Below, in pieces: positions 1 to 32,340 of a stretch of DNA of 32,340 bases (position 1 is its first letter; each line of letters opens with the position of its first letter). The DNA is taken from the IMG/VR virus record IMGVR_UViG_2711768060_000010, one strand, 5' to 3'. Source of the stretch: a virus (lineage: Duplodnaviria > Heunggongvirae > Uroviricota > Caudoviricetes). A model generated the notes under the pieces. That model was not told the DNA's origin. It saw only the letters and a list, made by a program, of their open reading frames with translations, and ran no database searches. Made by a program: the position numbers and the translations under genes.

Positions 1-1053
1 CTATAGATCACCTGAATTAATAGAAAAGAGATCTTGGTGGGATTTCATTGATGCCAATGGATTAAATTTTAATGCAGCTTCCAAATGGTCTGGGGCAAGA
101 TGGGCATAGCGCATAGTCATTTTTATATCGTGGTGTCCCAGTATTTTTTGCAGTGCGAGTATATTTCCCCCGGACATCATAAAGTGAGCTGCAAAGGTAT
201 GTCGAAGGACGTGCGTGAGCTGGCCACGCGGCAGTATGATTGAGGTTTTATCCATCACTGATGCAAACTGAAAGTAGTAATCATCAAAAAACTTGAATCC
301 CTTCAGCGCTGTGATCTCTTCATAAAGTTCTTTGCTGATGGGGATGCTTCTATTTTTTTTACCCTTAGTCCTGGTGAAGGTGATGCGGTACTTAGTCACC
401 TGCGATCTGGTTAGGTTTACAGCTTCTCGCCATCGGGCGCCGGTGCTTAAACAAATCTTGACTACCAGCGTTAACAATTCGTTCTGGTGTTGGCAATCAT
501 AAAGCAATTCTGCAATCTGCTCGTGGGTTAGCCACGCCATTTCTTTTTCAGCGATGGTGAATTTGCGCATATTCTCCAAGGGATTAGGTTGCAACCATTC
601 CCCTAAACGGATCAGTTCACTAAAAGCACCGCTTAAATAGCTCTGCTCAAGATTGACGGTTACAGGGCTAGCGCCGTTTTTCCATTTTTCGCTGAAGTAA
701 ATTTCTCCGGTTAAACGCTTATCCCGATAATGAGCAAACATTTTTGGAGTGAGGGACGTGGCTAGGGGATTGCCTAGCGCATCTACTATCAAAATGAGTT
801 TTTCGTATACATGTTGTCCGGCAGACAAAGAGGTGCCGTGAAGTTTGTACCAAAGGTCTACGATATCCCTGAGAGTTCGACGATCTACCGTTTCTCCAAG
901 CCACGGTTTCGCCGCTGTTTCATCCATCGTATGGCGCTCAAATGCTAGCGCCTCGCCTTTGGTGGCAAACTGTTTTCTTACCCTGCGTCCGGAACGCCCG
1001 GAAGGGTAACACTCACAGATCCATCGACCTGTTTCAAGTTTACGAACTGCCAT
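1..1053 (-). CDS. int: Phage integrase, tyrosine recombinase (186/P2-type)
   Basis: 350-aa ORF; C-terminal tyrosine-recombinase motifs visible in translation (HVLRHTFAAH ... GHHDIKMTMRYAHL with catalytic Tyr; upstream TGARWRE Arg box). Lies downstream of the repressor on the same strand as in 186 (pL-cI-int). Stop codon is window bases 1-3, so attL lies outside the window. Confidence 0.9.
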   Translation of the reverse strand: MAVRKLETGRWICECYPSGRSGRRVRKQFATKGEALAFERHTMDETAAKPWLGETVDRRTLRDIVDLWYKLHGTSLSAGQHVYEKLILIVDALGNPLATSLTPKMFAHYRDKRLTGEIYFSEKWKNGASPVTVNLEQSYLSGAFSELIRLGEWLQPNPLENMRKFTIAEKEMAWLTHEQIAELLYDCQHQNELLTLVVKICLSTGARWREAVNLTRSQVTKYRITFTRTKGKKNRSIPISKELYEEITALKGFKFFDDYYFQFASVMDKTSIILPRGQLTHVLRHTFAAHFMMSGGNILALQKILGHHDIKMTMRYAHLAPDHLEAALKFNPLASMKSHQDLFSINSGDL

Positions 1054-1130
1054 TCCATACCCCTCAATAATGCTTATAGGGTATTTTTTACTGTTTATTT
1101 ATACAGTGTCAATGTTTGTTAAGTCTGGAT

Positions 1131-1751
1131 TCAAACATTGGACATAAGGTAGTAGTAGCATTTAGCCAATGGCTTAAGGTCGTTAATACCGCATTCAAAA
1201 GATTGGCCACCTGAAGCAGGTGTGACAAGAACTTTGCCTACTGGAACGCGGGTGAGTTGTTTGATACTTACTTTTCCTTCAATTTCTACAACCCATGTTC
1301 CATCTGATACTTCGTCGTTTTTCTGATCTGCTACATATTGAATGTCATCATCTAAGATGATCACCGGATTGATGAGGTGAGAGGGGATTATAGCCTTGTC
1401 AAACATGTAGAAATTTGAATCGAACAGATTTCCATCAATTATCTTTTTACGCGGAACAGTAACGACATCACCCAGTAAGTTCTCATTTGCGGATTTCTGT
1501 TCTTCAATTGAAGACTGTGCAGCAGAGCCACTGAATTTCTCACCTTTACCAAACGACAGCCACTCAACTGATGCGCCAGTTTCTATAGAGCACTGGATAA
1601 CCCAATCAGCAGGGAAGATGTCACGCATCCACCTTGTACCCATTGTACTGGTCGAAACATTCAACTGTTCACACAGAGCCTGCCTCGTCTTAAATCCATA
1701 AGCTTCAAGAAGCCTGTTAATAACGGCTTGACCTCCGTTTTTGAAATCCAT
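1131..1751 (-). CDS. cI: CI-like immunity repressor (phage 186 CI family, N-terminal HTH)
   Basis: 206-aa ORF leftward, directly upstream of int; N-terminal motif RLLEAYGF...STSTMGTRW resembles the 186 CI HTH region as I recall it; divergent from the rightward early operon. Confidence 0.7.
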   Translation of the reverse strand: MDFKNGGQAVINRLLEAYGFKTRQALCEQLNVSTSTMGTRWMRDIFPADWVIQCSIETGASVEWLSFGKGEKFSGSAAQSSIEEQKSANENLLGDVVTVPRKKIIDGNLFDSNFYMFDKAIIPSHLINPVIILDDDIQYVADQKNDEVSDGTWVVEIEGKVSIKQLTRVPVGKVLVTPASGGQSFECGINDLKPLAKCYYYLMSNV

Positions 1752-1763
1752 TATTTCGCCTCG

Positions 1764-1820
1764 GGAAAGTTAAAGGTTGACACTTTCCAAATGGAAAGTT
1801 ATTTTGCTGGCGAACTTTCC
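1764..1820 (+). promoter_or_regulatory. Lytic early promoter pR (TTGACA 1777-1782, 17-nt spacer, TATTTT 1800-1805) embedded in repeated GGAAAGTT/AACTTTCC operator half-sites
   Basis: Read directly: GGAAAGTT at 1764-1771 and 1793-1800, inverted copies ACTTTCC 1782-1788 and AACTTTCC 1813-1820; consensus -35 and near-consensus -10 with 17-nt spacing, pointing rightward toward the Apl-like gene and only about 26 bp from the cI start. Confidence 0.55.
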
Positions 1821-1887
1821 AAAAACAGATTGTTCACCCTTTATCACCGCTAGCCACGGTTAACGCTCAAATGAGGAATCTTGCACT

Positions 1888-2109
1888 ATGACCACGAACA
1901 TTTCAATCAGCCTGCCTGTGCCGTCTATCTCTAAAGAGAAATACATCGAACTCACTGGCTTATCTGAAGATACCGTTGACGCCATGCTTAAAGACGGCCG
2001 CTTACCACGCCATCGTCTTCGCAAAGACAAGGGGCGTGAAAAAGTGATGATCAACATAGCGGCAATGACGATTGACGCTCTGGCCGGTTCCAACGTCGTA
2101 ATCAACTAA
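1888..2109 (+). CDS. Apl/Cox/Cro-like small DNA-binding switch protein (putative excisionase/lytic repressor)
   Basis: 73-aa basic ORF, first gene of the rightward operon opposite cI; GAGGA about 10 nt upstream of ATG; position equivalent to 186 apl / P2 cox. Confidence 0.5.
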   Translation: MTTNISISLPVPSISKEKYIELTGLSEDTVDAMLKDGRLPRHRLRKDKGREKVMINIAAMTIDALAGSNVVIN

Positions 2110-2141: not shown

Positions 2142-2645
2142 ATGTTTGATTATCAGACTTCTAAACATGCTCATTTTGATGCCGCTTGCCGAGCATTTGC
2201 ACTGACACACAATCTGGAAGATGTGGCCGCTGCCGTTGGTATGCGCCCGCAACTGCTGCGCAATAAGTTAAACCCGCTTCAGCCTCACCGCCTGACCTGC
2301 GATGAACTTCTGGCCATCACTGACCACACAGAAGATGCGCGTCTGCTGGATGGAATGCTCGCGCAGATTAACTGTCTGCCGTCTGTTCCGGTCAATAACG
2401 CTACGGAAGGAAACATGCAGTTTTGCGCACTGAGCGCCACGGCCAGCGTGGGCGCGATTGCTGGGGAAGCAGTATCAACAGAGCACATGACCGCAGCCCG
2501 CCGAACCCAAATCCTTGATCGCGCCCGCGATGCAATCCGCAGCCTTTCTGTCCTGGCTTACACAGTTGAAGGCCGTATTCAATCCGCGCCGATTCTGGCG
2601 GCTGCCGTCGATATTGTGACGACTAACGCCACCGGCATGATGTGA
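2142..2645 (+). CDS. CII-like phage regulatory protein (186 CII / CP76 family)
   Basis: 167-aa ORF immediately after the Apl-like gene; size and position match 186 CII (169 aa). Confidence 0.55.
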   Translation: MFDYQTSKHAHFDAACRAFALTHNLEDVAAAVGMRPQLLRNKLNPLQPHRLTCDELLAITDHTEDARLLDGMLAQINCLPSVPVNNATEGNMQFCALSATASVGAIAGEAVSTEHMTAARRTQILDRARDAIRSLSVLAYTVEGRIQSAPILAAAVDIVTTNATGMM

Positions 2646-2654
2646 GGGATGACC

Positions 2655-2852
2655 ATGAAGCCTTTCGTTACTTACCTGAAAAAAGAATCTCCGCCTATGC
2701 AGTTGGCCAGTGGCTCAACCGGCTGGATCGAACTGCCTGATGGACAGCGCTGGAACCCGGCGCATAGCTACAAGTTCAATGGCAGCTTACCGCGCCGCAC
2801 GTGGATGCAGCGTATCTTCCGTTTGTTTGGAGGGCGCCAGAATGCCTATTGA
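2655..2852 (+). CDS. Hypothetical small early protein
   Basis: Protein-like translation (MKPFVTYLKKESPP...); GAGGG about 8 nt upstream of the ATG at 2655 (the in-frame ATG at 2649 is too close to the RBS). Confidence 0.4.
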   Translation: MKPFVTYLKKESPPMQLASGSTGWIELPDGQRWNPAHSYKFNGSLPRRTWMQRIFRLFGGRQNAY

Positions 2853-7191: not shown

Positions 7192-7207
7192 CTGTATGTT
7201 TATACAG
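7192..7207 (+). promoter_or_regulatory. LexA box (SOS operator) over the -10 of a rightward promoter
   Basis: taCTGTatgtttatACAGtt: exact CTGT-N8-ACAG core with AT-rich spacer; upstream TTCACA (7167-7172) as -35, 17-nt spacer, TACTGT as -10 overlapping the box; 22 nt upstream of the RBS of the following ORF. Confidence 0.7.
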
Positions 7208-7228
7208 TTGTTTGCGTGGGAGGATACT

Positions 7229-7441
7229 GTGCAGGATTTATTTTTTGAAACCGTTGCCTTTCAACGGATCGCTTTAGTTGCAAAACTTATGGCAACCGCT
7301 GACTGTTCTGAAGATGAAAAGGATGTGGCGCTGGCCTGGCTTGGAGAGATGACGCAGGAACTGGGAAGGAAGCTGGATCAGTATGAAAAAAAACACCCCC
7401 ATAATGGGGGCGATTCAGGCGGCAGGGGCGGCTTTCAGTAA
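7229..7441 (+). CDS. LexA-regulated small protein; candidate Tum-like antirepressor/SOS-induction factor
   Basis: GTG start 7229 preceded by GGGAGG (7218-7223); about 70 aa; position after gene A and LexA control parallel phage 186 tum, but the product is shorter than 186 Tum and its identity is inferred from context only. Confidence 0.4.
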   Translation: MQDLFFETVAFQRIALVAKLMATADCSEDEKDVALAWLGEMTQELGRKLDQYEKKHPHNGGDSGGRGGFQ

Positions 7442-7738
7442 ATCCAGAGCCATTTGCTTCTGATTGGGTGACAGATTTTTTAATAAGGTTTGTACCAGAG
7501 CGTCACCCGTTTTAGCGCTGGGGCTGAGAGTGTGGGAAAACGTCAAATTCATAACAAAAGTGTGCCCACACTCCACATCTGCGCATGCGCAGTAAATATC
7601 TGCAATCTGGCGGTGCTTTCGGTTAGTTTTGCGAATCACAGCCTTAGATCCGCACTCCGGACATTCAATTTTCAGGACTCTCATATTCCATTCTCCGGCT
7701 GTCAAATAATGCCTGGATTTTAGCCTTTTTTGACTCAT
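7415..7738 (-). CDS. Ogr/Delta-family zinc-finger transcriptional activator (late gene activator candidate)
   Basis: Cys pattern CPEC...RKTNR...YCACADVECGHTF parallels Ogr/B (CPxC...RTSR...QCxNxxCxxTF); the ATG at 7738 overlaps the portal stop (ATGA), alternative internal start at 7684 has a GGAG RBS. Confidence 0.65.
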   Translation of the reverse strand: MSQKRLKSRHYLTAGEWNMRVLKIECPECGSKAVIRKTNRKHRQIADIYCACADVECGHTFVMNLTFSHTLSPSAKTGDALVQTLLKNLSPNQKQMALDLLKAAPAA

Positions 7739-8787
7739 GCTGCACCCTTCACCGTTGTTTCTTCAGTAAAATTCAAATGCAGGTGGCGCGGAATTTCCGG
7801 ATCGCTGTTGATGGCCATCGCCAGGCGGCGCTGAATGGGCAGCACTTCATTCTTTTTGTAGGTGCGCTCAATCTTTTCCGGGTCGCCCAGCCCGGCAGTA
7901 TTCTGCGGAACAATACCTGCAAGCCCGGCCGGAAAGCGGTGCGCGTTCAGAATGTCCTGGGCGCTGATGTTCTTCACGCTCGCAAATTCATCCTTGGCCG
8001 AAATGTCCCCCATCTCAATAAACTTGATCGCGTCACCGTCGCCGCCAGGGATGTTCACCAGGATGGTGGAGAAGTTGCCGATCCCCTTGCTGTCCCGCAG
8101 CTGCCGTTCAATCTCCTCCTCCATTTCGTCCGTCATGCTGGGGTCACGGGTATACAGAATGCCGCCCGTGTGTGCGCCGTTGTGGTAGTAGCGACGGCGA
8201 AAAATAACTGCCTCACTGTTCAGCAGGGCAGAGTGAACGCCGCCGATGTAGTCCGGCAGACCATAGATGTGCTGCTGCGGGTCGTACATCTTGATGAAAA
8301 TGATATCGTCAGGCGGGAACGCCAGCGGCTCGCCTTCCTGTAAAACCACGTAATCCCCTGGCACAGTCTCCGCGTTTTCTCTCTCCTTTCGTCGGCGGAG
8401 GTAAAGCCCCGGCAGCGGCTGAAGCCCGATCACGTCTCCCCAGCCATTACGGATTTTGGCCACAGCGATATCACCAAAGGTCAGGTAATCAAAAACAGCG
8501 GCCTCCAGCTCGTCGAACGTCAGGCCGCCGCCCTGATAGTCCGCCGTCACCATGTTTTTACGGGCGTGGATAATCCCGCCGTGCTGGCCGTTCAGGTTGA
8601 TAAGCTGCGCCAGCGCCAGACGGTCAATCGGCTGGGTGTAGTGGTCGGCGGCGTTGTCGTACCAGATTTCCCGGTAATCGGTTCCGGTAGTCAGTACCGG
8701 TTCTGGTTTGCCAAAGCTGATAATGCTCATTTTTTTGGACTTATCGCCGCGCTGTTCGCGCTTCACAAAACGTTTCTTTTTGCTCAT
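7735..8787 (-). CDS. Portal protein (P2 gpQ-like)
   Basis: 350-aa ORF directly downstream of the terminase large subunit on the same strand; size matches P2 Q (about 344 aa). Confidence 0.85.
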   Translation of the reverse strand: MSKKKRFVKREQRGDKSKKMSIISFGKPEPVLTTGTDYREIWYDNAADHYTQPIDRLALAQLINLNGQHGGIIHARKNMVTADYQGGGLTFDELEAAVFDYLTFGDIAVAKIRNGWGDVIGLQPLPGLYLRRRKERENAETVPGDYVVLQEGEPLAFPPDDIIFIKMYDPQQHIYGLPDYIGGVHSALLNSEAVIFRRRYYHNGAHTGGILYTRDPSMTDEMEEEIERQLRDSKGIGNFSTILVNIPGGDGDAIKFIEMGDISAKDEFASVKNISAQDILNAHRFPAGLAGIVPQNTAGLGDPEKIERTYKKNEVLPIQRRLAMAINSDPEIPRHLHLNFTEETTVKGAA

Positions 8788-18224: not shown

Positions 18225-20287
18225 AACAGTTAGATTTTACATTAAGCCTGATCGATAAATTGTCACGCCCGTTAAAACAGGCGCAGGGCAGCGTGACCGG
18301 CTTTGCGGAAAAATCAAACGCAGCGTTTAAGCAGATTGGCGGCGGGGCGCTGGCGCTGGTCGGAACGGGGATGGCCATTAAAAGCGCTTTGTCTCCGGCC
18401 ATTGAGATGTATGACGCGCTGAACGATGCGGCCGCAAAAGGCATCGACAACACTGCGCTTAAGACGGTGCAGCGCGATGCGCTGACGTTCAGCATGACCT
18501 ACGGTGCCAGCGCACTGGATTTTGTTAAGTCCACTGAGGAGATTAACACCGCCATTGCCGGGCTGACCGGAACGGAACTGCCGAAAGTGACCAAAACCGC
18601 CAATACCCTGGCGTTTGCCCTCAAAGCCACCTCCGCGGATACGGCGGAGTTTATGGGGCAAATGTTCGGCAACTTCTCGTCAGATGCTGAGCGGCTGGGC
18701 AAAGTCCAGTTTGCGGAACAGCTGGCGGGCAAGATGGTTTTCATGCGCAAAACCTTTGGCACCGAAATGGCCACTATTAAAGACCTGATGGAAGGCGCGC
18801 GCGGCGTGGGTACAAATTACGGCGTAGGGCTTGATGAACAGCTGACCGTGCTGGGGCAACTGAACCGCACGCTGGGTTCTGAAGCCAGTAGTGCCTATGA
18901 AGGCTTTATGACCGGGGCGATTGAAGGCGGCAAAAAGCTGGGGCTGTCCTTCACGGACTCCACCGGGAAAATGCTGTCCATGCCTGAAATGCTGATCAAG
19001 CTGCAGGGCAAATATGGCAAGAGCCTGGAAGGGAACCTGAAAGCACAGGCGGAGCTGGATGAAGCCTTTGGTGACAGTTCGGCAGTGGTTAAGCATCTTT
19101 ATGGCAACGTGGCGCTGCTGCAGAGAAACATCACCGAACTGGGCGGCGCTGACGGGCTGAAGCGTACACAGGAAATGGCCAGCAAGATGGTGAAGCCGTG
19201 GGATCGGTTCGTGGCTATTCTGACGGCGATTAAAACCGTGATTGGGCTGACGCTGATCCCGGTACTGTATCCGGTGCTGAATCGCCTGGCGGATATGGGG
19301 CAGACGTTTGCACGCTGGATGCAGCTGTTTCCCAATATCGCGCGTGTGGTGGGTTATGCAGCGATGGCACTGCTTAGCTTTGCCGCCGTGGGTGCAGTGG
19401 TCAACATCCTGATGGGTGTTTCTGCTTTCGTTATGGGTGGCCTGCGCGGGATCTGGGTGGCGCTGGCCTCAGTGACGCGCATTTACACCGCCACTATCTG
19501 GCTGGCACAGAAAGCCGTTGTTGTCTGGAATATCACCCTGGGTGCGTTGCGAGGCATCCTGCTGGCGGTGCGTATGTCGGCAATTATGGCCGGGGTGGGC
19601 ATCAATCTTATGAGCCTGCCGATTCTGCTGGTTATCGGGGCGATTGCTGCGCTGGCCGCTGGTTGTTACCTGCTGATCCGTAACTGGGAAGCGATTAAAA
19701 CCGCTGTCATGAATACGGAAGCCTTTGCAGCAGCTGCAGCAGTGGTTAAGTGGCTGGCGGGTATTTTTGCCAGCGCCTGGCAATACATCAGCGATGGATG
19801 GAATGCCTTTACTGCATTGCTGGCCGGGTTCTCTCCTGCGCAGGCGCTTAGGGGAATGGCCACGGGCATCATGACGATGTTTGATAACGTCTGGCAGACC
19901 ATCAAAGACAGTTTCCTTAAATCATGGAACTGGATTGTAGAGAAGCTAAATAAAATACCGGGCGTGAATATAGGGCTGGCAGAAACTTCAGCGCAAGCAG
20001 CTGCGGTTCCGGTGCCTGAATTAAAACAGGTTGCTAAAGCAGAGGGGGCAGCATCATCCCTGCCACAAAATATTAACGCCAGTAATCCGCAGCCGCTTCT
20101 GACTTCAAATACTCTTTCCACAGGTGGTGAGTTAAAGGGCATTGAAAAGGGCGGTCTTTCAAAAACAATTAACAGCAATTCTAAATCTGTTGTTGATAAC
20201 AGTAAAAAAATTGAAAACGTTAATATTTATCCAAAAGAAATGTTAACGCCTGGCCAGTTAATGGAGTATCAGGAGTTGGGCGCATGA
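18221..20287 (+). CDS. Tail tape measure protein
   Basis: 688-aa ORF, Ala/Gly-rich with a central hydrophobic block; follows the chaperone/frameshift pair, the canonical position for a tape measure gene. Confidence 0.85.
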   Translation: MKQLDFTLSLIDKLSRPLKQAQGSVTGFAEKSNAAFKQIGGGALALVGTGMAIKSALSPAIEMYDALNDAAAKGIDNTALKTVQRDALTFSMTYGASALDFVKSTEEINTAIAGLTGTELPKVTKTANTLAFALKATSADTAEFMGQMFGNFSSDAERLGKVQFAEQLAGKMVFMRKTFGTEMATIKDLMEGARGVGTNYGVGLDEQLTVLGQLNRTLGSEASSAYEGFMTGAIEGGKKLGLSFTDSTGKMLSMPEMLIKLQGKYGKSLEGNLKAQAELDEAFGDSSAVVKHLYGNVALLQRNITELGGADGLKRTQEMASKMVKPWDRFVAILTAIKTVIGLTLIPVLYPVLNRLADMGQTFARWMQLFPNIARVVGYAAMALLSFAAVGAVVNILMGVSAFVMGGLRGIWVALASVTRIYTATIWLAQKAVVVWNITLGALRGILLAVRMSAIMAGVGINLMSLPILLVIGAIAALAAGCYLLIRNWEAIKTAVMNTEAFAAAAAVVKWLAGIFASAWQYISDGWNAFTALLAGFSPAQALRGMATGIMTMFDNVWQTIKDSFLKSWNWIVEKLNKIPGVNIGLAETSAQAAAVPVPELKQVAKAEGAASSLPQNINASNPQPLLTSNTLSTGGELKGIEKGGLSKTINSNSKSVVDNSKKIENVNIYPKEMLTPGQLMEYQELGA

Positions 20288-22383: not shown

Positions 22384-24270
22384 ATGTCACAGACAGCTAT
22401 TACCCTGGCGTTTGAGCGATGGAAAGCGCAGCAGGGCGCGACGGGTGAGCCGGTATTACTTGATGAATTTGTTTTTGCCAACGTTCCGGGGCTGAATCCA
22501 GATACCCCCATTGACCGTAACGAGGTGTTACCGCCTGCGGCGCAAATTGTTCACCGTCAGCCCGTCACCCGCAGCGGCGTGGTGAATGAAAACAGCGTGG
22601 TGTTTTCTGCCGTTCTTGGCGCGGATGTGGGGGATTTTGTTTTCAACTGGATCGGGTTGCTGAACAAAGCCAGCGGTACGCTGGCCATGATTGTTCATGC
22701 ACCGGAACAGCAGAAGCTGAAAACCGCAGAAGGGCAGCAGGGTAACGTTTTAACCCGCTCTTTCCTGATGGAGTACAACGGCGCTCAGACAGAAACCGCG
22801 ATCACGACTCCGGCAGAAACCTGGCAGATTGACTTCACTGCGCGTATGACTGGAATGGATGAACGCCAGCGCGTGGAAAATCTGGACATTTTTGGTTCTG
22901 CGGCTTTTTTTGGTGACGGGTATCTGGTCGCTAAATCGGGTAGTCAGTTCTTTGTGACCAAAGGCACCGGATATGTGGGCGGGTTGCGTGCGTCGCTTGA
23001 GGCAAACCAGAATATTGCCGTTGCGGCGAAGCCAGTAAAGGTCTGGCTGGACGTTTGCTGGACAGGTTCACTAACCAGCGTATGGGGCGTGCAGACCAAA
23101 ATCACGCTGGCCACAGACCTGGCTAATTATCTGCAAAACGGGGTTCAACATTACGTATTTGCACTGGCCAGCATTGACGCAAACGGGAACATAACAGACC
23201 TGCGCCCGAAAGGGACGCTTAACGAGCAGGCCGCCAGTGACGCGCTGAAAAAACACGAACAGTCACGCAATCACCCGGATGCGACAACTGGCGCTAAAGG
23301 ATTTGTTCAGCTGAGTAGCGCAACTGACAGCACCAGTGAGGCGCTGGCGGCAACGCCAAAAGCGCTAAAAATCGCGATGGATAACGCCAATGCCCGACTG
23401 GCGAAAGACCGAAATGGCGCGGATATCCCGAACCCGGCTTTGTTCATCCAGAATATCGGATTGCAGCAAACGGTTGATCTGGCGAAAGGGGCAGTACCTT
23501 CCACGCGAAGGGTTAATGGAAAGGCGCTGTCAGGAGATATAGAGATTTTTCCCTCTGATATTTACGCCGGATCGGTAGCCCTGGGCGCTGGGGTGGATTT
23601 AAACGCAATTACCACACCGGGCCTCTACTATCAGCCGCAAAACGTGAACGCGCAAGGCGGGAAGAACTACCCCGAAGTAAACGCCGGATCGCTTGAAGTC
23701 CTTAAACATGCGGGTGTCACGCAGATTTACCGGATTTATAACAACTCAAAATGTTACTGGCGGGCGCTCTATGGCAACAACTGGTCAGCCTGGGCGAAAG
23801 TGTACGATAACAATTTCCGCCCGACTGCGGCGGAAGTTGGAGCACTCCCCAGTAGCGGGACGGCGGTTGCCGCCGTGAAACTGGCGACACCCCGCTTAAT
23901 TAACGGCATCGCCTTTGATGGGACGCAGAATATTGGTATCAGTGCGACGGCGGTCGGGGCTTACTCAAAAGCCGAAAGCGATGCCAAATACGGCGCAAAA
24001 AACACAATCGGTAAAGCGGCTAACGGATGGTTTAAAGATACGACCACAGGATTGATTATTCAGTGGGGATTTACCAACCAGACAGGCGGTTATCAAAATA
24101 TTACGTTCCCTATCGCATTCCCAAATGCGTGTCGAAATATTCAGGTTACGCCCTATACCGCCAACGTGGCCGGAACGCTCGAATGTTCGGTATCGCAATA
24201 TTCCAATACGACAGCAAGGCTTAACGCAAACCAGAACTATCCGTTGTTCTGGCAGGCAACAGGATATTAA
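22384..24270 (+). CDS. Tail fibre protein (gpH-like, receptor binding)
   Basis: 628-aa ORF directly upstream of a tail fibre assembly chaperone; AGGAG RBS. Confidence 0.75.
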   Translation: MSQTAITLAFERWKAQQGATGEPVLLDEFVFANVPGLNPDTPIDRNEVLPPAAQIVHRQPVTRSGVVNENSVVFSAVLGADVGDFVFNWIGLLNKASGTLAMIVHAPEQQKLKTAEGQQGNVLTRSFLMEYNGAQTETAITTPAETWQIDFTARMTGMDERQRVENLDIFGSAAFFGDGYLVAKSGSQFFVTKGTGYVGGLRASLEANQNIAVAAKPVKVWLDVCWTGSLTSVWGVQTKITLATDLANYLQNGVQHYVFALASIDANGNITDLRPKGTLNEQAASDALKKHEQSRNHPDATTGAKGFVQLSSATDSTSEALAATPKALKIAMDNANARLAKDRNGADIPNPALFIQNIGLQQTVDLAKGAVPSTRRVNGKALSGDIEIFPSDIYAGSVALGAGVDLNAITTPGLYYQPQNVNAQGGKNYPEVNAGSLEVLKHAGVTQIYRIYNNSKCYWRALYGNNWSAWAKVYDNNFRPTAAEVGALPSSGTAVAAVKLATPRLINGIAFDGTQNIGISATAVGAYSKAESDAKYGAKNTIGKAANGWFKDTTTGLIIQWGFTNQTGGYQNITFPIAFPNACRNIQVTPYTANVAGTLECSVSQYSNTTARLNANQNYPLFWQATGY

Positions 24271-29720: not shown

Positions 29721-31406
29721 TTATCCTAATCCTGGCCATACCATGACGATGATTGTCCCTGCCAGCGTCAGCAGGACGTTGGCGATTGCGTAGGTGCCCG
29801 CGTAGCCCAGCGCAGGGATGTTACTGCGAGCTGTATCACTGATGATCTCCATTGCCGGCGCGCAGGTGCGTGCGCCCATCATTGCGCCGAACAACAGTGC
29901 GCGGTTCATTCGCAATACATAAGCACCGAACAAGAAACAGATAACCACGGGCACAAGACTGACAATTAATCCGGCAATCAACATCTGACCGCCAATCGCG
30001 CCCAGGCCGTTATTAATACCGCTACCGGCGCTCAGACCAACGCCTGCCATAAACACCATCAAGCCGAACTCTTTCACCATGCTTAATGCACCTTGCGGAA
30101 TGTAACCGAAGGTCGGGTGGTTAGCACGCATAAAGCCCAGCATAATTCCGGCGAATAACAACCCGGCAGCGTTCCCCATGCCGAAACTGAATGTGCTGAA
30201 CTGGAAGGTGATCATCCCGATCATCAGCCCAATAACAAAGAAGGCGCAAAATGCCAGCAGGTCAGTGACCTGGCTGTGAATCGAGATAAAGCCGATGCGA
30301 TCGGCGATGGTTTTTACGCGACGGGCATCACCGCTGACTTGTAAAACGTCACCTTTGTTAAGCACGACGTTGTCATCTATCGGCATCTCAATCTGGCTAC
30401 GAATGACGCGGTTAAGGAAGCAACCGTGATCGGTCAACTTCAGTTGTGCGAGACGTTTACCTACAGCGTTATGGTTTTTAACGACCACTTCTTCAGTGAC
30501 GATACGCATGTCGAGAAGGTCACGATCGAAAACTTCTTTACCGTTACGGAAGCTGGGATCGAGTCGGGCATGGGCGTCGGGATAGCCTACCAACGCTATT
30601 TCATCGCCCATTTGTAGCACGGCATCACCGTCTGGATTTGCCAGAATCCCGTTACGTCGAATACGTTCAATGTAGCAGCCGGTTTGTCGATAAATACCCA
30701 GTTCACGCAGATTTTTGCCGTCGGTCCAGGCCACCAGCTCCGGGCCGACGCGATAGGCGCGGATCACCGGTAAATAAACCTTACGGTTGGCATCAGTGTC
30801 CAGGCCACGTTCGCGGGCGATTTGCTGGGCGCTGGTCTGTAAGTCCTGATGCTGCAATTTCGGCAAGTAACGCGCACCAACAATCAAACTCACCAGACCG
30901 ATTAAATAGGTTAAGGCATACCCGAGGCTCAGATTATCCAGTGCCAGTGAGAGCTGCCTGCTTTCCATGCCGGAATGACGCAGTGTATCGCCAGCACCGA
31001 CCAGAACCGGTGTCGACGTCATAGAGCCTGCTAACATACCGGCCGTCAGGCCAATATCCCAGCCAAACAGCTTACCTAACCCTAAGGCGATCACCAGCGC
31101 ACTGCCAACCATCACCAGTGCTAACATTAGGTAATTTTTCCCATCGCGAAAAAAAATGGAAAAAAAGTTCGGTCCGGCTTCGACCCCGACGCAGAAAATA
31201 AACAGCATAAAGCCAAGATTAAGCGCATCGGTGTTAATGCTGAAATGTTGTTGGCCTAATAACAGCGATACGACTAAAACGCCAATGGAATTACCCAGTT
31301 GGATCGAACCAAGTCGTAACTTTCCGAGACATAGCCCAAGCGCGAGGACCACAAATAATAACAGAATGTAATTCCCATTTAACAATTCGGCGACGTTTAT
31401 ATTCAC
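29721..31406 (-). CDS. ybjL: Putative AAE-family transporter YbjL (two membrane domains flanking cytoplasmic RCK-C/TrkA-C domains)
   Basis: 561-aa ORF recognised as E. coli YbjL from its translation ([20 protein letters not shown]...); chromosomal, not phage. Confidence 0.9.
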
Positions 31407-31675
31407 GGAGGCTAACTTCTTGTTTACTAGTAAGCTGTTGAAAGAAATGGTAATTTACGATAATGTTTTTTACCAGAATTCAGGGCGCAGATTCATTCAG
31501 CGCACCTAAACGATAGTAAAGTAACAATATATTTTACTAGTGTAATCACATTAGGTATCAACGGCTATATGAATTGCGTTGGCCTATATTAGCATGGAAT
31601 GCGAAGCGGCTTTATCTTACTGAACGCCACACTGGCGAAAAATGTGTTCGATAGACGCAGTGTCAGGAGGAACGA

Positions 31676-32053
31676 GTGAAACATAAACAACGTTGGGCGG
31701 GGGCAATCTGCTGTTTTGTCCTCTTCATTGTGGTGTGCCTTTTTCTGGCGACGCACATGAAAGGCGCTTTTCGGGCTGCCGGGCATCCTGAAATCGGCTT
31801 GCTATTTTTCATTCTTCCTGGAGCAGTCGCCAGCTTCTTTTCACAGCGTAGAGAAGTCCTGAAACCTCTGTTTGGCGCAATGCTGGCGGCACCCTGTTCG
31901 ATGCTCATTATGCGGCTGTTTTTTTCACCGACGCGCTCATTCTGGCAAGAGCTGGCATGGTTACTAAGCGCGGTGTTCTGGTGTGCGCTGGGGGCACTGT
32001 GTTTCTTATTTATCAGTAGTTTGTTTAAACCACAGCACAGAAAAAATCAGTAA
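31676..32053 (+). CDS. ybjM: Inner membrane protein YbjM
   Basis: 125-aa hydrophobic ORF, GTG start with AGGAGG RBS; order ybjL-ybjM-grxA matches E. coli K-12 as I recall it. Confidence 0.8.
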   Translation: MKHKQRWAGAICCFVLFIVVCLFLATHMKGAFRAAGHPEIGLLFFILPGAVASFFSQRREVLKPLFGAMLAAPCSMLIMRLFFSPTRSFWQELAWLLSAVFWCALGALCFLFISSLFKPQHRKNQ

Positions 32054-32073
32054 AGCCCTCAACGCGAGGGCTT
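32053..32073. terminator. Shared terminator hairpin between convergent ybjM and grxA
   Basis: AAGCCCTC aacgc GAGGGCTT stem-loop right after the ybjM stop; the A-run on the plus side gives a U-run for the minus-strand (grxA) transcript. Confidence 0.55.
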
Positions 32074-32082
32074 GTCAGACGA

Positions 32083-32340
32083 TCAGGCGTCCAGATTTTC
32101 TTTCACCCATGCAGCAAAATCGGTATAGCCGCCGATATGTTGCTGATCGACAAAAATCTGCGGCACGGTTTCTACGGGTTTACCTGCCTTTTGTTGTAGA
32201 TCTTCTTTAGTGATCCCTTCCGCACGAATATCTACATACTGATACTGAAAATCATCGCGTTCATTGCTCAATTTCTCAGCCAGATCTTTTGCACGCACAC
32301 AGTAAGGGCAACCCGAACGACCAAAAATAACGGTTTGCAT
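32083..32340 (-). CDS. grxA: Glutaredoxin 1
   Basis: 85-aa ORF with CPYC active site (MQTVIFGRSGCPYCVRAKDL...), matching E. coli GrxA; its start codon is the last three bases of the window. Confidence 0.95.
   Translation of the reverse strand: MQTVIFGRSGCPYCVRAKDLAEKLSNERDDFQYQYVDIRAEGITKEDLQQKAGKPVETVPQIFVDQQHIGGYTDFAAWVKENLDA

Follow-up and report, generated by a model that had tools for sequence, protein, structure and literature searches.

The CI repressor of phage 186 forms a 14-mer wheel which wraps and loops DNA. The lytic promoter pR of this phage bears three CI operators two turns apart, completed by the distal operators FL and FR, and CI relieves interference (PMC3675496). More generally, P2-like phages carry face-to-face lytic and lysogenic promoters, separated by 40-60 bp that include RDF sites (PMC7498355), and converging promoters are known in the P2 type as well as in the 186 type (PMC3448106). 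According to the annotation of the 186 GenBank record, the source used here for the 186 promoters and operator sites, the -35 and -10 boxes of pR are located at 23026 and 23049, 14 nt from the cI start, with three CI sites over pR; the sequence of the pR spacer shows the inverted repeat TATCTC-N8-GAGATA. The pL promoter has its -10 at 23131-23136 and its -35 at 23154-23159, inside apl (ATG at 23141), seven Apl sites are found between the two promoters, and the starts are 62 bp apart. The distal CI sites are FL, inside cI and 306 bp from the pR operator, and FR, at the apl-cII junction.

We analyzed a stretch of 32,340 nt of phage DNA (hereafter the window), which can be assigned from its sequence to a P2/186-like prophage of E. 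coli with an insertion site between rcdA and ybjL. The chromosome of E. coli LR-51 (NZ_AP027550.1) matches positions 1100-2150 at 100% identity, and this stretch was found in only one of 5,426 complete E. coli genomes. At the other end, reading of the ORF translations places positions 29721-32340 in the host chromosome (ybjL, ybjM, grxA), so that the prophage would end before about 29.7 kb. Based on ORFs and family matches, the left end shows the gene order of 186, with int and cI leftward, then apl, cII and fil rightward; a Dam methylase gene and the replication gene A follow to the right of fil. The genes and the interval of interest are:

1-1053, minus strand: int, from ORF and family matches.
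1131-1751, minus strand: cI, 186-type immunity repressor of 206 aa, from Pfam and PDB matches.
1752-1887: cI-apl gap holding the switch, 136 bp.
1888-2109, plus strand: apl/cox-like gene (phrog_575), first gene of the lytic operon, presumed excisionase and repressor.
2142-2645, plus strand: cII-like gene for an establishment activator (Pfam Phage_CP76, E 1.8e-45).
2649-2852, plus strand: fil-like gene (Pfam Phage_186_Fil, E 4e-9).

The CI protein (WP_053289300.1) has the domain architecture of its 186 counterpart: the HTH domain at the N-terminus is joined by a linker to the oligomerisation domain at the C-terminus. Both members of the Pfam pair defined on 186 CI were matched above cut-off (Phage_CI_repr, PF07022, E 1.9e-26; Phage_CI_C, PF16452, E 1.3e-29). 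Residues 10-198 match the 186 CI structure 2FJR (E 1.2e-23), which was counted as a full-length match, and the C-terminal domain is homologous to 2FKD/2FJR. Unlike these shared traits, the overall identity to 186 CI is only about 30%, and the linker is longer by roughly 14 residues. The product of the apl-like gene gives a match to phrog_575 ("Cox-like excisionase and repressor", E 5.7e-24) and a weak one to Pfam Phage_Cox, and resembles 186 Apl at its N-terminus, and the CII homologue is 46% identical to that of 186. Like the Pe-Pc switch of P2, the locus has a Cox/Apl-type RDF as its first lytic gene (PMC3448106, PMC1904263). The P2 C repressor, in contrast, is an unrelated, smaller protein with direct repeats as binding sites, and cII is absent from P2 (PMC3448106, PMC1904268); with a repressor of the 186-CI type and a CII homologue, the locus falls outside the P2 type. 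With a probability of about 0.8, we take the region for the switch between lysis and lysogeny in an E. coli prophage of the 186 type (P2-like), most likely working as the 186 switch does. This reading is based on protein homology, on motifs and their clustering, and on the base-level conservation of the promoters in relatives and in 186, where they have been mapped.

The predicted lytic promoter adjoins cI, as in 186:

1777-1805, plus strand: pR-like lytic promoter, TTGACA-17-TATTTT, 10 of 12 consensus positions.

Its hexamers TTGACA (1777-1782) and TATTTT (1800-1805) are separated by a 17-nt spacer, and transcription is predicted to start near 1812-1814. The TTgAC and TAnnnT positions do not vary in an alignment of 12 related switches, one of them that of 186. 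The first-pass annotation, made from the letters and ORFs of the window, had placed a strong rightward promoter about 26 bp from the cI start, and this was borne out, as 25 nt separate the cI ATG (1751-1749, minus strand) from the -35. The same annotation took it for the only strong sigma-70 promoter, which holds inside the cI-apl gap but not beyond it, since another promoter matching 10 of 12 positions lies before int (1112-1083, minus strand). It had also presented the switch as compact; pR is farther from cI here than in 186 (25 nt vs 14 nt), so compactness is not a distinguishing feature.

The pR region contains a repeated word. The 8-mer GGAAAGTT occurs exactly at 1764-1771 (plus), 1793-1800 (plus) and 1813-1820 (minus), and a fourth copy at 1781-1788 (minus), CACTTTCC, matches at 7 of 8 positions. 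All four copies contain the 7-mer core GGAAAGT without mismatch and follow one another within 57 bp in the order forward, reverse, forward, reverse. Four alternating 8-mer half-sites bracketing pR had been announced; their number and orientation are right, with the 8-mer exact in three copies only and the 7-mer in all four, and the outer copies do flank the promoter, but copies 2 and 3 fill the spacer between -35 and -10. In the whole 32-kb window GGAAAGT is present seven times, and the probability that four of seven copies fall within 57 bp by chance was 1.5e-6 by simulation. Moreover, when 1752-1887 was shuffled 20,000 times with dinucleotides preserved, no shuffle contained four non-overlapping copies of any complex 7-mer. 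The clustering of GGAAAGT is far beyond chance. A further GGAAAGTT at 31318-31325 (7-mer at 31319) is located in the host gene ybjL and was set aside as a chance occurrence unrelated to the switch.

Copies 2 and 3 together form a perfect 18-bp palindrome, ACTTTCCAAATGGAAAGT (1782-1799), which fills the pR spacer at the place of TATCTC-N8-GAGATA in 186. A dimer PWM was built from the pR half-sites only and compared with a background of 1.04 Mb of unrelated phage DNA, consisting of 120 unrelated chance matches from a pattern scan of viral contigs for GGAAAGTT-N5-TTGACA. Three candidate operators were obtained at pR:

1753-1770: left dyad operator candidate, ATTTCGC-CTCG-GGAAAGT, PWM score 13.8, second best in the 32-kb window.
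1782-1799: central dyad operator candidate, ACTTTCC-AAAT-GGAAAGT, formed by half-sites 2 and 3, PWM score 25.6.
1814-1831: right dyad operator candidate, ACTTTCC-AAAA-ACAGATT, PWM score 11.2.

No site in the 1.04 Mb of unrelated DNA scored 20 or more. The left dyad contains half-site 1 (1764-1771), is centred 29 bp to the left of the central dyad and has an equivalent in relatives. The right dyad, 32 bp to the right of the central one, combines half-site 4 with a degenerate distal half and lies over the predicted pR start. At 21 bp to the left and right of the central dyad, the scores are strongly negative (-18 and -35), and the flanking dyads are at 29 and 32 bp, roughly three turns as opposed to the two turns reported for 186, whose two-turn three-operator rule they do not follow. 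Our preferred reading of the four words is a set of three dyad operators, centred at about -29, 0 and +32 bp. It is plausible that the GGAAAGT words are CI operators, in view of their position, their dyad symmetry, their co-variation among relatives and the operator-like dyads found 300 bp away inside cI.

How CI would dock on these words can be conceived otherwise within the same switch, namely on two wide inverted repeats (1764-1770/1782-1788, spanning the -35, and 1793-1799/1814-1820, spanning the -10 and the start) or on the central palindrome alone. Such docking would make use of the exact inverted repeats, which are centred at -1, +13.5 and +29.5 relative to the start of the -35, it would do without the weak outer halves of the flanking dyads, above all that of the right one, and it would avoid a 29/32-bp spacing that misfits the two-turn rule of 186 (PMC3675496). 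We nevertheless hold it to be unlikely, as the outer half ATTTCGC of the left dyad is close to the ACTTCGC half-site which relatives carry in their central operators, three complete dyads with a comparable spacing exist in the related locus L012, and the FL-like sites described below are compact, with the same 11-bp half-site spacing as at pR. Returning to the three dyads, we tentatively propose, as a possibility to which we give well under even weight, that CI of this clade may dock on pR through three dyads about three turns apart, with an FL-like array of two-turn (21-bp) period. If this docking were true, the wrapping geometry at pR would differ from that of 186, perhaps permitted by the linker of roughly 14 additional residues, and the operator array would constrain the linker sequence of the repressor itself (NEN/SNEN codons).

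The closest deposited phages are the Escherichia phages ESSI2_ev129 and ev040 (Quadragintavirus, Peduoviridae), with a CI 74% identical to that of the window. Together with the uncultivated loci L006-L011, they show 81% DNA identity over the int-to-fil region and CI proteins 69-83% identical, and they share with the window the recognition helix, the promoters and the positions of the operators and of the FL-like sites. Their half-sites are less regular (ACTTCGC, GAGAAGT, AACATTCC), the window being the most regular with its four exact GGAAAGT cores. Our literature search found no experimental work on the switches of ESSI2_ev129/ev040 and L006-L011. An inverted repeat occupies the position of the pR spacer in every relative, and the word of each is repeated upstream of the -35 and downstream of the -10. 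The words themselves change with the CI clade: GGAAAGT in the window, CTCTTC/GAAGAG in L010, ATTCCG/CGGGAAT in L012, a unit of 15-17 nt, ATCTCGAAAAGTGAA, in a Yersinia clade and TTCAC/GTGAA in another clade. Fixed positions with changing words give the look of operators of heteroimmune repressors. In L012, the three clear dyads are about 29-31 bp apart, similar to the roughly three-turn spacing of the window.

Within the subclade of the window, the recognition helix VSTSTMGTRWMRD is identical, though the half-sites drift (ACTTCGC, GAGAAGT and AACATTCC again), so the recognised word would be looser, roughly TTTG[G/A/C][G/A]AAGT, and the exact word would not be strictly required. The GGAAAGT-type words of the window also differ from those of 186, which are TATCTC/GAGATA and ATTCAC/GTGAAT. 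The locus is best seen as an ordinary switch of the 186 type whose immunity specificity is new. In the IMG/VR contigs of loci L028-L040, the CI homologue (1501-2379, about 290 aa) carries its N-terminal HTH domain twice in tandem, followed by the C-terminal domain.

The pR-trained PWM also revealed sites far from the promoter:

1478-1516: FL-like distal cluster of two dyads, in the DNA coding for the cI linker (residues 79-92).

The first dyad, AGTTCTC-ATTT-GCGGATT (1478-1495), scores 11.3, which makes it the third-best fixed-spacing PWM site of the whole window, and is 304 bp to the left of the central pR dyad. The second one, GTTCTTC-AATT-GAAGACT (1499-1516), scores 8.5 and lies 283 bp from the central dyad and 21 bp from the first; in 186, FL is at 306 bp. 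Sites scoring at least 11.3 occur at 0.10 per kb in the 1.04 Mb of unrelated phage DNA, and the remaining 30 kb of the window contained none. In most of seven relatives, the best PWM site outside the pR cluster falls at -304. In L010, the best distal site is at -284, with a score of 21.1, higher than that of its own pR operator and than anything in the 1.04-Mb background. Relatives have more dyads at -283 and -262, in steps of 21 bp. The CI linker is hypervariable as a protein, yet its coding DNA keeps the motif TCATTTG(C/A)G. Simple mismatch counting gave no exact or near-exact half-sites at +/-300 bp, the FL-like sites being visible only with the family PWM, and word searches in more distant CI clades gave no FL-like copies. 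We regard 1478-1516 as a candidate FL equivalent, which supports a 186-like looping or wheel mechanism. An FL-like region with two or more dyads 21 bp apart is a departure from 186.

In a switch of the 186 type, the apl-cII junction, about 350 bp rightward, would be expected to carry FR over pE. No FR equivalent was found on the apl-cII side: an unbiased search for shared 17-mer pairs between the cI side and the apl-cII side, which recovered FL/FR of 186 as a control, gave a best pair of 14/17, within the null. One FR candidate (2108-2125) was dropped because of its PWM score of 0.6 and the negative pair search; an FR site of a different sequence type may be present. A near-palindrome, TATCTCTAAAGAGAAATA, is present at 1924-1941 inside apl, 144 bp to the right of the central pR dyad. 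Its position is shared by relatives with modest PWM scores, and its arms resemble the 186 pR half-site TATCTC/GAGATA; either weak CI binding or a coding constraint alone could account for it.

Between pR and pL, and at the beginning of cII, two further candidate elements can be read:

1833-1858, plus strand: candidate Apl (RDF) direct repeats, TTCACC / ATCACC / GCCACG, at 10-bp spacing.
2142-2169: CII-type site, ATGTTTG-N14-TAAACAT, at the 5' end of cII.

By analogy with the Apl sites of 186 (PMC7498355), it is plausible that TTCACC, ATCACC and GCCACG are Apl sites. They are conserved in close relatives, and the word is common (14 per kb) and carries no statistical support; similar words also occur near attL. 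At the sequence level, the CII-type site is nearly identical to the annotated 186 site, ATGTTTG-N14-CAAACAT.

As the promoter regions of P2 and 186 phages contain repeated words to which the RDF binds (PMC7498355), the GGAAAGT words could themselves be sites of an Apl/Cox-like excisionase-repressor instead of CI sites. We find this very improbable. An RDF recognises direct repeats that are spaced by about one helical turn and lie between the promoters (PMC7498355), whereas the GGAAAGT words alternate and make up a perfect palindrome in the pR spacer, the place of a CI operator in 186; in addition, operator-like dyads are found again within cI, at the position equivalent to FL.

For the lysogenic promoter, the best minus-strand candidate within 1700-1990 was:

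1878-1906, minus strand: pL-like lysogenic promoter, TTGAAA-17-CAAGAT.

The -10 is CAAGAT (1883-1878) and the -35 is TTGAAA (1906-1901), the latter inside apl; transcription would start near 1871-1872. Its consensus match is only 8/12. The offsets from the apl ATG are those of the annotated 186 pL (-10 at -10 to -5, -35 at +13 to +18), and the surrounding sequences are homologous, GGAATCtTGCAcTATG in the window vs GGAATCaTGCAaTATG in 186. The -10 CAxxAT and the -35 bases are invariant in the 12 switches including 186, the CI proteins of which are 30-83% identical to that of the window. The longest fully conserved run in the 1.6 kb compared among seven close relatives, AGGAATCTTGC (1874-1884), covers the pL -10 and the ribosome-binding site of apl; the overlap of pL with this site and with coding sequence could explain part of its conservation. 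Another leftward candidate, TGGCTA-16-AACAAT (1856-1829, 7/12), was dropped, as the final T of its -10 is lost in L007.

The predicted pR and pL starts converge at a separation of about 57-60 bp, vs 62 bp in 186. A face-to-face arrangement of pR and pL is thus supported at the level of sequence and homology. The convergent, 186-like layout proposed by the first-pass annotation agrees with the homology of CI, Apl, CII and Fil, with a pL at the 186 offsets and with a minus-strand scan in which no divergent promoter of the lambda PRM kind was detected beside cI. Its placement of the leftward cI promoter between pR and the apl gene was correct in that the predicted promoter faces pR from the apl end, but its -35 lies inside apl. 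The face-to-face layout is not peculiar to this locus but is the documented norm for P2/186-type phages (PMC7498355, PMC3448106).

Lambda serves as the comparison for 186 in PMC3675496 and in bioRxiv 10.1101/2021.10.29.466366. As at its PRM/PR region, the repressor of the window would occupy several dyad operators over the lytic promoter, and distant looping operators are present as candidates. The lambda promoters, in contrast, are back-to-back and PRM is activated by direct repressor contact, whereas the promoters of the window converge and activation would be indirect, via relief of interference. A lambda-like layout, with a leftward cI promoter overlapping pR and starting just upstream of cI, would be suggested only by the closeness of pR and cI (25 nt). 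It has even less to recommend it than an Apl/Cox origin of the words: no minus-strand candidate with at least 7/12 matches and the key -10 bases was found within 1752-1830, and in 186 the homologous promoter has been mapped to the end near apl, with bases invariant across the family. Lastly, that the palindrome and a T-run form an intrinsic terminator or RNA hairpin is scarcely credible, for although a scan flagged 1782-1799 plus TATTTTGCTG (fold energy -7.8 kcal/mol), the z-score is only -1.45 on the plus strand, no plus-strand gene reads into it, the hairpin is lost in L007 (CI 75% identical; -4 kcal/mol, other structure) and the palindrome is upstream of the predicted pR start, hence absent from pR transcripts.

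Under the 186-type reading, we infer the following course of events. The strong rightward pR would drive apl, cII, fil and the early genes, and the weak leftward pL would drive cI. Both promoters would fire at each other from starts about 60 bp apart, so that an active pR would suppress pL by transcriptional interference, and Apl would bind between them. CI would bind the GGAAAGT-type dyads in the pR spacer, upstream of the -35 near the cI start and over the transcription start; in this position it would occlude RNA polymerase at pR and indirectly help pL. The dyads at 1478-1516 would probably be bound by the same CI oligomer through looping, as is FL in 186, and induction would be of the Tum-like SOS kind.

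For general biology these observations matter little, as convergent pR/pL promoters, relief of interference by CI and looping operators have been worked out in 186. The locus shows that this design is conserved base for base in a heteroimmune E. coli prophage. For specialists, it could serve as a natural variant for the CI wheel model, with new words, a pR spacing of about three turns and a two-turn FL-like array, and possibly as a further orthogonal repressor/operator pair for synthetic circuits.

We also observed several elements of SOS type. Unlike in 186, where cI and int overlap, the window has a 77-bp gap between these genes (1054-1130), in which an int-directed promoter is found, TTGACA-18-AAAAAT (1083-1112, minus strand; sigma-70-like, 10/12). 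Exactly within the spacer of this promoter is a perfect LexA-type box, TACTGTTTATTTATACAGT (1091-1106). ESSI2_ev129 and L006-L009 have kept this box, in L010 it is degenerate, and other clades lack it. This LexA-box promoter suggests SOS-controlled integrase expression, that is, a direct action of SOS on int which would be an addition to the 186 scheme. Our literature search found no description of an SOS-controlled integrase of this kind in P2-like phages.

A second perfect LexA-type box, CTGTATGTTTATACAG (7192-7207), is situated just past gene A, ahead of a short ORF (phrog_698; box and ORF span 7192-7441). The product of this ORF has 30% identity over 37 residues to the N-terminus of 186 Tum, and the DinI-like C-terminal part is absent. 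The position downstream of gene A is that of the LexA-controlled p95-tum unit of 186, and the presence there of a LexA box with a Tum-N-like ORF makes SOS induction via an antirepressor likely. A third match to CTGT-N8-ACAG, CTGTTGTTGATAACAG, occurs at 20187-20202, with a poor internal AT pattern, and may be due to chance; in total, three matches were found vs 0.37 expected.

Two other genes may be mentioned. An Ogr/Delta-type zinc-finger late activator gene is present at 7415-7738 on the minus strand (Pfam E 1.6e-19); it overlaps by 4 nt the end of the preceding 350-aa ORF (7735-8787), so the two may be co-transcribed. In E. coli LR-51, just outside the left end of the window, a minus-strand ORF (locus L162, 1500-1860) is found between attL and int; it consists mostly of about a dozen tandem repeats of the GPGGG(L/M)YT type.
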